Sequence record: MT446416.1 | Length of the DNA: 64,000 nucleotides | Reading direction: 5' to 3' (one strand) | From: Escherichia virus TH47 | Part shown: positions 32,486 through 32,914 of the stretch, one piece after another | How the letters are laid out: each line of letters begins with the position of its first letter | How positions within the stretch are numbered: the stretch's first letter is position 1 | Translations under genes and position numbers: made by a program | Notes under the pieces: model-generated | What the model was told of the DNA's origin: nothing | Database searches by the model: none | The model's input: the letters and a program-made list of their open reading frames with translations, nothing else

Positions 32486-32914
32486 TTAAATTCCAATCCG
32501 GTTATTTTTACAAAATTCCATTGCATATGCCCATTTTGATTGGTTAATCGCAACGGTGATTTTGTCTTTCTTGGATTTAGCCATTTCCATGTGACATTGT
32601 TTGTACGGTTTAACTTCCAGTACTTGAGCATGTTGTTTACCATCTGCACCAATATAAAGTACATAAAAATCAGGCCAGTACTGATGAACTGCATTATCAA
32701 CTGGATTCACGTAAGGAATACTAAATGGCTCTACACTCCACTCTATAACCGCAGGGTTGTTGTCTAAAGATATCATGATATCCTTTTCCCAAGAACTACG
32801 GTATATAGGTTGGTTATTACTTTTATACTTTTGTATATTTTTTATAGGGAAGATACCTTGAGCCTGTTTGGAGTTGGTAATCTTCGCTGGGTTAAACTGC
32901 TGGTTAAATGCCAT
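32486..32914 (-). CDS. small protein with PD-(D/E)xK nuclease-like motif
   Basis: motif WPDFYVLY...QVLEVKP (PD ... E-x-K); AGGAGA RBS; coupled to upstream gene. Confidence 0.4.

Follow-up and report, generated by a model that had tools for sequence, protein, structure and literature searches.

The locus examined here raises two linked questions: what kind of nuclease is encoded by a small gene set among tail genes, and where does the coding sequence of that gene end? In this work we address both for a 64,000-nucleotide (nt) stretch of Escherichia virus TH47 (sequence record MT446416.1), referred to throughout, at its full length, as the window, in which the gene is present as a minus-strand open reading frame (ORF) at 32486..32914 with a product of 142 amino acids (aa). 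The gene as such is already known and annotated, and there is nothing new in its identity as a nuclease. What appears to be a new element is a clade-wide +1 frame break that truncates the annotated ORF, with purifying selection acting on the sequence downstream of it. The simplest account of this pattern is a conserved +1 ribosomal frameshift at AAC_CGG_A, and it is likely, judging from the sequence comparisons presented below, that the full-length form of this gp4-type nuclease depends on that shift.

A first-pass annotation, made from the nucleotide sequence, had described a 142-aa product carrying WPDFYVLY and QVLEVKP with an acidic residue upstream, and had taken this for the arrangement of PD-(D/E)xK nucleases. 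The ORF call and a check of the codons against the DNA confirmed both motifs, which occupy residues 80-87 (W80, D82, Y87) and 97-103 (Q97, E100, K102, P103), with D82 encoded by GAT at 32671-32669, E100 by GAA at 32617-32615 and K102 by AAA at 32611-32609; the upstream acid is E43 of an RSSWE motif. The nuclease assignment itself was borne out by matches of the 142-aa protein to Pfam PF08722 (TnsA-like endonuclease N terminal; E 8.6e-17, 61.9 bits against a cutoff of 26.5) and to PHROG 218, "head closure" (E 1.2e-39). BLASTP against Tequatrovirus gp4 gave 30% identity (E 6e-15), and tblastn recovered homologs in 2,301 phage records, or 2,564 when the query was the 153-aa product that results from fusing the ORF to its +1-frame tail. 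These homologs, usually labelled gp4, head completion or head closure, occur in T4-like coliphages, cyanophages and phages of Vibrio, Aeromonas and Campylobacter, and a profile search places at least 7,888 members in the family. Closer to the window, the 12 kb surrounding the gene are 97.5% identical to the jumbo coliphages vB_Ec-M-J, Ecwhy_1 and BF17 and ~85% identical to 121Q and PBECO4, relatives that belong to the genus Asteriusvirus, Rak2-like myoviruses with genomes of ~350 kb; the window, too, is from a jumbo coliphage of this genus. The 142-aa protein is 100% identical to an annotated "head completion protein" of Ecwhy_1, and the gene has been named in the paper on Sharanji, a member of the same clade (PMC11895373).

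Kosinski et al. 2005 (PMC1189080) predicted that T4 gp4 (gene 4, also known as 50 and 65) belongs to the PD-(D/E)xK nucleases, with TnsA and T7 endonuclease I among its relatives, and its DNase activity is required for head-tail joining according to Benler et al. 2020 (Virology 543:7), as that study is cited by Iyer et al. (PMC7824862) and in PMC11895373. The window protein shares with it a single domain of ~150 aa, the RSxWE...PD...ExK signature and the same Pfam and PHROG families. The ORF almost certainly encodes a gp4-type nuclease, and we regard the gene as the Asteriusvirus ortholog of T4 gp4, a single-domain TnsA-like PD-(D/E)xK DNase with E43, D82, E100 and K102 as its active-site residues; by homology to T4 gp4, nuclease activity and a role in head joining would be expected. 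The two differ in that the gene is one unbroken ORF in T4 and in every other relative examined, whereas here the last 15 codons lie in the +1 frame.

Sequence searches of the PDB with the protein or its profile returned weak matches (E 0.2-1), which made fold searches necessary. A single-sequence AlphaFold2 (AF2) prediction for the 142-aa ORF was unusable, with a predicted local distance difference test score (pLDDT) of 38, and was replaced by a model of the 153-aa fused product based on a multiple sequence alignment of 66 sequences (pLDDT 90.1; predicted template modelling score, pTM, 0.82). Structure prediction had been put forward at the outset as a check on the assignment, and this model has the restriction-endonuclease-like alpha-beta-beta-beta-alpha-beta core fold. 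Foldseek matched it to TnsA with probability 1.0, and the top named matches in BFVD were "Head completion nuclease" entries, aligned over the full length with template modelling (TM) scores of 0.80-0.83. E43, E62, D82, E100 and K102 are invariant in both family alignments (25 and 66 sequences), and in a HMMER alignment RSSWE(43) lines up with RSGLE(20), and PD(82)F with PD(55)F, of T7 endonuclease I, an enzyme whose known active-site residues are E20, D55, E65 and K67. The window protein likewise has an acid in helix 1, an aspartate in strand 2 and a (D/E)xK motif in strand 3; the fold match and the invariance of these residues suggest that they cluster in one metal-binding site.

If the identity of the nuclease is familiar, its 3' end is not. 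Family members are single uninterrupted ORFs of ~145-155 aa that end in a ...FxxxTE... strand, a description which the 142-aa ORF fits only once a +1 frameshift is allowed. One extra C at 32500 breaks the frame, and the annotated ORF stops early: the window reads TGT AAA AAT AAC C GGA TTG GAA where its closest unshifted relative has TGT AAA AAG AAT GGA TTA GAG. AAC (Asn138) occupies 32503-32501 and is followed in the 0 frame by CGG at 32500-32498 and in the +1 frame by GGA (Gly) at 32499-32497. Aligned with the family, the window protein and its close relatives end in ...CKNNRIG(I/V), while all other homologs continue ...CK(K/N)NGLEFKxITExxLYKK, and the missing C-terminus is intact in the +1 frame directly downstream (Table 1). 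The +1-frame TGA overlaps the ATG of the next gene (ATGA), an arrangement also found in 4 of the 6 unshifted relatives examined (our locus L027 is an exception). The annotated stop is probably not the end of the functional coding sequence, whose conserved C-terminus, on the evidence of these alignments, runs on in the +1 frame to 32452.

The extra base is a stable property of the clade. When the 153-aa fused product was used in tblastn, all 35 phage records at >=75% identity (33 genomes once RefSeq duplicates are removed) aligned only to residue 140, while every more distant relative, including EJP2, 7t3, Munch, RaK2, K64-1, GAP32 and CBB, aligned past the break, to residues 147-153, without interruption. 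No unshifted protein more than 80% identical was found in a collection of 5.8 billion proteins, and this absence, together with the clean split in tblastn, indicates an insertion that is old, fixed and never reverted. From GenBank phages, Logan assemblies of SRA data and ENA we gathered 13 distinct haplotypes of clean sequence, which over the gene share 82-85% identity with the window, and AATAAC-C-GGATTGGA is identical in 13 of 13. Scans of IMG/VR and JGI metagenomes for the shift-site motif yielded 121Q-like contigs and one unrelated match only, adding no further diversity. The break is unflagged in the GenBank records checked, which annotate the short ORF, and no relevant report on frameshifting, either in Asteriusvirus or in head-completion genes, came up in literature searches.

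Gain or loss of one base close to the 3' end of a gene is what sequencing error or early pseudogenisation typically produces, and two low-quality records (CMSTMSU and SD-6_S16) carry further indels, so that the extra C might be an artefact or the gene might be decaying. Against this, 35 phage records, contributed by many laboratories, and independent Logan and ENA read assemblies all have the insertion, and its carriers, at 82-85% nucleotide identity, have kept the coding pattern of the gene body (101 of 139 variable sites at third positions) and an intact tail; we give this explanation hardly any weight. CMSTMSU, SD-6_S16 and a third entry, SD-1_S14, in which further indels or an internal deletion fragment the nuclease gene, were excluded from the substitution analysis. 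One of these records is flagged UNVERIFIED_ORG, and their extra indels are probably assembly-quality problems.

The variation among the 13 haplotypes shows which frame of the tail is maintained. The gene body has 139 variable sites among 393, and the encoded amino acid differs at 30 of its 131 codons. Within the 48-nt tail there are six variable sites (GAA/GAG, TTT/TTC, ATC/ATT, ATT/ATA, CTA/TTA and TAT/TAC), and the changes are synonymous at all six in the +1 frame, at one in the +2 frame and at none in frame 0, where they would mean Ile->Val, His->Tyr, Tyr->Asn and Ser->Phe replacements and TAA/CAA switches at both stops. For six random substitutions, the probability that every one is +1-synonymous lies between 5e-5 and 5e-4, according to transition bias. 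In phage A4 the first 0-frame stop is lost, and the gene is annotated with a product of 151 aa. Of the features expected of a programmed +1 frameshift, the locus shows conservation of the site and frame arrangement across diverged genomes, purifying selection on the downstream frame and homology of the predicted trans-frame product to unshifted orthologs. Third positions vary in 5 of the 16 tail codons, compared with a minimum of 9 in any 16-codon stretch of the body, and those of AAT, AAC, GGA and TTG at the site are invariant; this lower third-position variation points to an extra nucleotide-level constraint around the site.

The tail is also a structural part of the enzyme in the model, where it forms a strand (141-145) and a helix (147-151) with pLDDT ~93. 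It contains the family-invariant residues F142 and E147 and the near-invariant G139 and T146, G139 being conserved in at least 90% of sequences. With the tail included, the Pfam score goes up from 61.9 to 76.9 bits, coverage of the 85-position profile is extended from 1-78 to 1-85, and the PHROG 218 score reaches 155.9 bits (E 1.5e-45) instead of 136.7.

Could the 142-aa protein nevertheless be the functional nuclease, with the 48 nt beyond it untranslated and conserved as a ribosome-binding site, for translational coupling or as an RNA element? In GenBank the short ORF is annotated in all records and carries no join flag, the tail nucleotides are more conserved than the gene body, as in a regulatory element, and an AAGGA Shine-Dalgarno-like sequence of the next gene lies inside the tail. 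Non-coding constraint would not be expected to produce six +1-synonymous substitutions (P ~1e-4), and it leaves the identity of the +1 peptide to the ancestral C-terminus unexplained. Moreover, the 0-frame stop that would end such a protein is itself variable, the part that would be lost holds F142, E147 and a core β-strand, and no conserved RNA structure was found. We consider an untranslated tail unlikely, and translation of the +1 tail quite likely on evolutionary and structural grounds. Two other routes to its expression were rejected: transcriptional slippage, as AACCGG holds no homopolymer and in several genomes the A5 run ahead of it is broken (AAGAAT), and an independent small ORF, as the +1 frame is closed by stops a short way upstream in 121Q and JNE01 and lacks a conserved start or Shine-Dalgarno sequence.

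If ribosomes change frame, the position of the shift can be narrowed considerably. Stop codons restrict it to ~10 codons in JNE01-type genomes (GAA...TAA), frame 0 fits the family consensus through EFCKNN and the +1 frame from GLEF on, and the K136 codon varies between AAA and AAG, a change that is synonymous in frame 0 only; together these observations place the shift at AAC|C|GGA. The tail could also be reached by a different shift, whether at CGG_A_UUG one codon later, once CGG has been read normally (giving ...NNRLEFK), by quadruplet decoding or by slippage on UUU_U upstream, since the stop codons by themselves leave the whole ~10-codon interval and UUU_UGU does occur in some genomes. However, JNE01 and Turkey5 have UUC_UGU, which is not slippery, the two consensus matches adjoin at the well-conserved G139, and no pause would be expected one codon later because the AUU that follows CGG is a common codon. 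For the seven tRNAs of Sharanji, ARAGORN gave only ordinary three-base anticodons (these are anticodons as called, not loop sizes). A shift of one of these other kinds is, in our assessment, very unlikely.

The 0-frame codon at the proposed AAC_CGG_A site is itself unusual. CGG is the rarest sense codon in the window, with 3 occurrences among 19,244 codons in ORFs of >=100 aa, two of them in doubtful ORFs (one lies within a terminator-like hairpin upstream of the annotated start, the other, on the opposite strand, in a gap without annotation). Across the 42 ORFs of >=150 aa (15,897 codons) there are 0 CGG codons in frame, against 157 CGG out of frame, and the in-frame deficit is one of translational avoidance, not of CpG or trinucleotide depletion; on these counts the 0-frame A-site codon is one that should be slow to decode. 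Only 1 of the 474 CGG trinucleotides in the window, that at the proposed recoding site, has a long ORF upstream of it together with a 0-frame stop soon after and a +1 frame that stays open, and other CGG shift sites in the window were rejected on this topology. AGG is also rare in the ORFs of >=150 aa, with 9 occurrences. The hairpin mentioned above, GAGAACGGAAAATTCCGTTCTC followed by T6, lies at ~24290-24335 on the minus strand, just upstream of the annotated start of a 76-aa gene (EcMJ_297 homolog), and accounts for one apparent CGG codon in a mechanically called ORF.

No tRNA genes were found in the window. Sharanji (OR545507.1) has seven, including Asn(GTT) for the P-site AAC and Gly(TCC) for the +1 GGA (see also PMC11895373), and its Arg tRNA has the anticodon TCT, which does not decode CGG. 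On the minus strand at 17374-17562 of that genome are two unusually long calls, a tRNA-Met(CAT) of 90 nt and a tRNA-Ser of 92 nt with an ACT anticodon, which is atypical for Ser.

These elements suggest how the site might work. A ribosome staying in frame 0 would meet CGG (Arg) and stop four codons on, releasing a 142-aa protein without the last core β-strand. Some ribosomes would pause with tRNA-Asn on AAC and the A site empty at the 'hungry' CGG and, instead of decoding it, would accept Gly-tRNA on the +1-frame GGA, a codon read by the tRNA-Gly(UCC) that phages of this clade encode; having shifted, they would read 15 more codons to complete the full 153-aa nuclease. By the precedent of T4 gp4, this nuclease would act after DNA packaging so that filled heads join tails. 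Given no stimulator, no RNA structure and poor re-pairing of tRNA-Asn on ACC, the best fit is a Ty3-type hungry-codon shift with out-of-frame decoding in the A site. We regard the case for this specific hungry-CGG/GGA mechanism as evenly balanced.

Several points weigh against a frameshift at this site. No upstream Shine-Dalgarno-like stimulator was found, nor any conserved RNA structure near the site: minimum free energy folds of the 13 haplotypes are weak and inconsistent (-7 to -15 kcal/mol), and an RNA stimulator was rejected for lack of support from folding. AAC is not a classic slippery P-site codon, and re-pairing on ACC leaves a central mismatch. In E. coli itself CGG is a codon of moderate rarity only, which could keep the efficiency in vivo low, and tRNA-Gly(UCC) and tRNA-Asn are common in phages, which makes the tRNA link circumstantial. 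In addition, extra constraint, for example from the ribosome-binding site of the next gene, could explain part of the conservation of the tail, and the trans-frame product is a prediction from sequence evolution.

The proposed AAC_CGG_A shift can be likened to the class of hungry-codon +1 sites that includes yeast Ty3 (GCG_AGU_U) and Ty1 (CUU_AGG_C) and the CGG_(A)/UGG_(A) sites next to GGA of glass-sponge mitochondria, where an extra base 5' of GGA makes a very rare CGG_(A) (Atkins et al. review, PMC5009743). The AAC_CGG_A site resembles those systems in that a base added on the 5' side of GGA puts a very rare CGG into frame 0, no RNA stimulator is evident and the full-length product needs the shift; as in Ty3, the P-site codon re-pairs poorly in the +1 frame. 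The known sites operate on eukaryotic or mitochondrial ribosomes, whereas this one, proposed from sequence, would operate on E. coli ribosomes in a phage-infected cell. A second comparison is with E. coli prfB (CUU_UGA_C) and Listeria phage PSA, in which +1 recoding within a bacterial or phage gene also yields a functional long product. Both shift at a stop codon with a slippery P-site codon, prfB with the further help of an upstream Shine-Dalgarno-like stimulator. At the site proposed here, in contrast, a sense codon occupies the A site, the nearby stop in frame 0 varies between genomes and no Shine-Dalgarno-like element was seen.

Table 1. Parts of the nuclease gene and its immediate neighbours, in positions of the window.
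Feature	Position	Strand	Evidence
Codons 1-138 (frame 0) of the gp4-type head-completion nuclease gene	32501..32914	-	Profile matches, BLASTP, variation pattern
E43 in the RSSWE motif, first catalytic acid; helix 41-52 in the model	32786..32788	-	Aligns with T7 endonuclease I E20; invariant
PD...ExK core (D82, E100, K102); strands 83-88 and 94-101 in the model	32609..32671	-	Invariant in both alignments
Proposed +1 recoding site AAC_CGG_A	32497..32503	-	Invariant in 13 haplotypes
+1-frame tail, 15 codons and TGA; last core β-strand and short helix	32452..32499	-	Synonymous changes, model
0-frame TAA ending the annotated 142-aa ORF; CAA in phage A4	32486..32488	-	Haplotype comparison
Upstream neighbour, 364-aa tail-tube-like protein, third tube paralog	32915..34009	-	PHROG 13438, 4542
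Downstream neighbour, 185-aa acidic protein of unknown function	31898..32455	-	PHROG 16202; ATG overlaps the +1-frame stop

The remaining question is whether a nuclease gene is out of place in this setting. The gene lies in the late morphogenesis cluster of a T4-related myovirus, and the minus-strand order in the window is dNMP kinase (38719-39399), tail sheath (35961-38624), tail tube (34887-35573), tube paralog (34021-34797), the 364-aa tube-like gene, the nuclease gene, the 185-aa gene and then virion structural proteins. In Tequatrovirus the order is dNMP kinase, gp3, gp2 and gp4, followed by the divergently transcribed baseplate genes 53 and 5. In both, the nuclease gene sits amid tail or baseplate genes and close to the dNMP kinase gene, although its neighbours in T4 are gp2 and gp53 and here are a tail-tube paralog and an acidic protein of unknown function. 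Its location is thus normal for the lineage, and its position is unchanged in all Rak2-like relatives fetched. These two observations together dispose of the suggestions in the first-pass annotation that a nuclease among tail genes was unexpected and might be a selfish insertion.

The same annotation had named a Holliday-junction resolvase as a candidate. Fold and catalytic motif are indeed common to T7 endonuclease I, archaeal Hjc and TnsA, and one record is labelled 'Tn7 transposition protein tnsA', so that a branched-DNA resolvase, or a mobile TnsA-type or homing nuclease within the tail module, deserves consideration. The closest similarity of the protein is, however, not to resolvase families, and what it shares with T7 endonuclease I and Hjc is the PD-(D/E)xK fold, with the correspondence of E43 and D82 to T7 E20 and D55. 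Identity to the N-terminal catalytic domain of Tn7 TnsA (PDB 1f1z, 1t0f) is 13-15%; PF08722 is matched and the C-terminal TnsA domain is not, and the NCBIfam TnsA-like model scores 26 bits against a cutoff of 110. Tn7 TnsA combines an N-terminal nuclease with a C-terminal domain and is accompanied by tnsB and tnsC, whereas the gene described here is a conserved phage morphogenesis gene with tail-gene neighbours and not part of a transposon, as far as can be said with no search aimed at TnsB or TnsC. A resolvase or mobile nuclease is highly improbable in our view; the general PD-(D/E)xK assignment of the original interpretation stands.

Several further features of the neighbourhood were observed. 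Between the sheath and nuclease genes, three tail-tube-family paralogs of 228, 258 and 364 aa (PHROG 4542, 13438) stand in a row at 32915-35573 on the minus strand, and the stop of the last abuts the nuclease ATG at 32914-32912. In UE-S1 and ph0011 this abutment is replaced by a gap of ~60 nt behind the tube-like gene, and the nuclease has a different N-terminus (MMNFNPAK...) that is three residues shorter. On the other side, frame 0 of the nuclease gene is also the frame of the 185-aa gene, from which it is separated by two TAA stops (32486-32488 and 32459-32461); each is polymorphic with CAA, and none of the 13 haplotypes, a small sample, lacks both, a loss that would fuse the two ORFs. Finally, a 664-aa ORF at 39707-41701 (minus strand), between the dNMP kinase and the neck/adaptor genes, matches Pfam DUF7487 (E 4e-38) and is confined to the window, UE-S1 (96%) and ph0011 (92%, where it is annotated 'endonuclease domain-containing protein'). 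The otherwise closest relatives of the window are without it, and their alignment ends at ~39708; it looks like a mobile or indel gene, an insertion of the selfish type at another locus.

If the shift at AAC_CGG_A is real, a natural and conserved +1 recoding site would join the short list for bacteria and phages, one with an unusual architecture, in that the P-site codon is non-slippery, the 'hungry' codon in the A site is a sense codon and no stimulator is visible. It would also require an annotation correction in at least 33 genomes, from 142 to 153 aa with a join, and would offer a concrete test of whether phage-encoded tRNAs steer the choice of reading frame; since the host of the phage is E. 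coli, the site is directly testable. With regard to the biology of the phage, it would suggest one way to limit the dose or timing of a non-specific DNase, although a role in keeping such an enzyme scarce or late is at this point speculation. More tentatively still, and with some doubt on our part, an obligatory +1 shift at this non-slippery site, with its otherwise unused CGG codon, may be the sole route of expression of an essential nuclease in 33 genomes, with the balance between scarce host tRNA-Arg(CCG) and phage tRNA-Gly(UCC) setting the amount and lateness of the DNase. Were that so, a hungry-codon shift of the Ty3 or sponge-mitochondrion type would take place on E. coli ribosomes, and tRNA supply would act as the regulator of a potentially self-destructive DNase.
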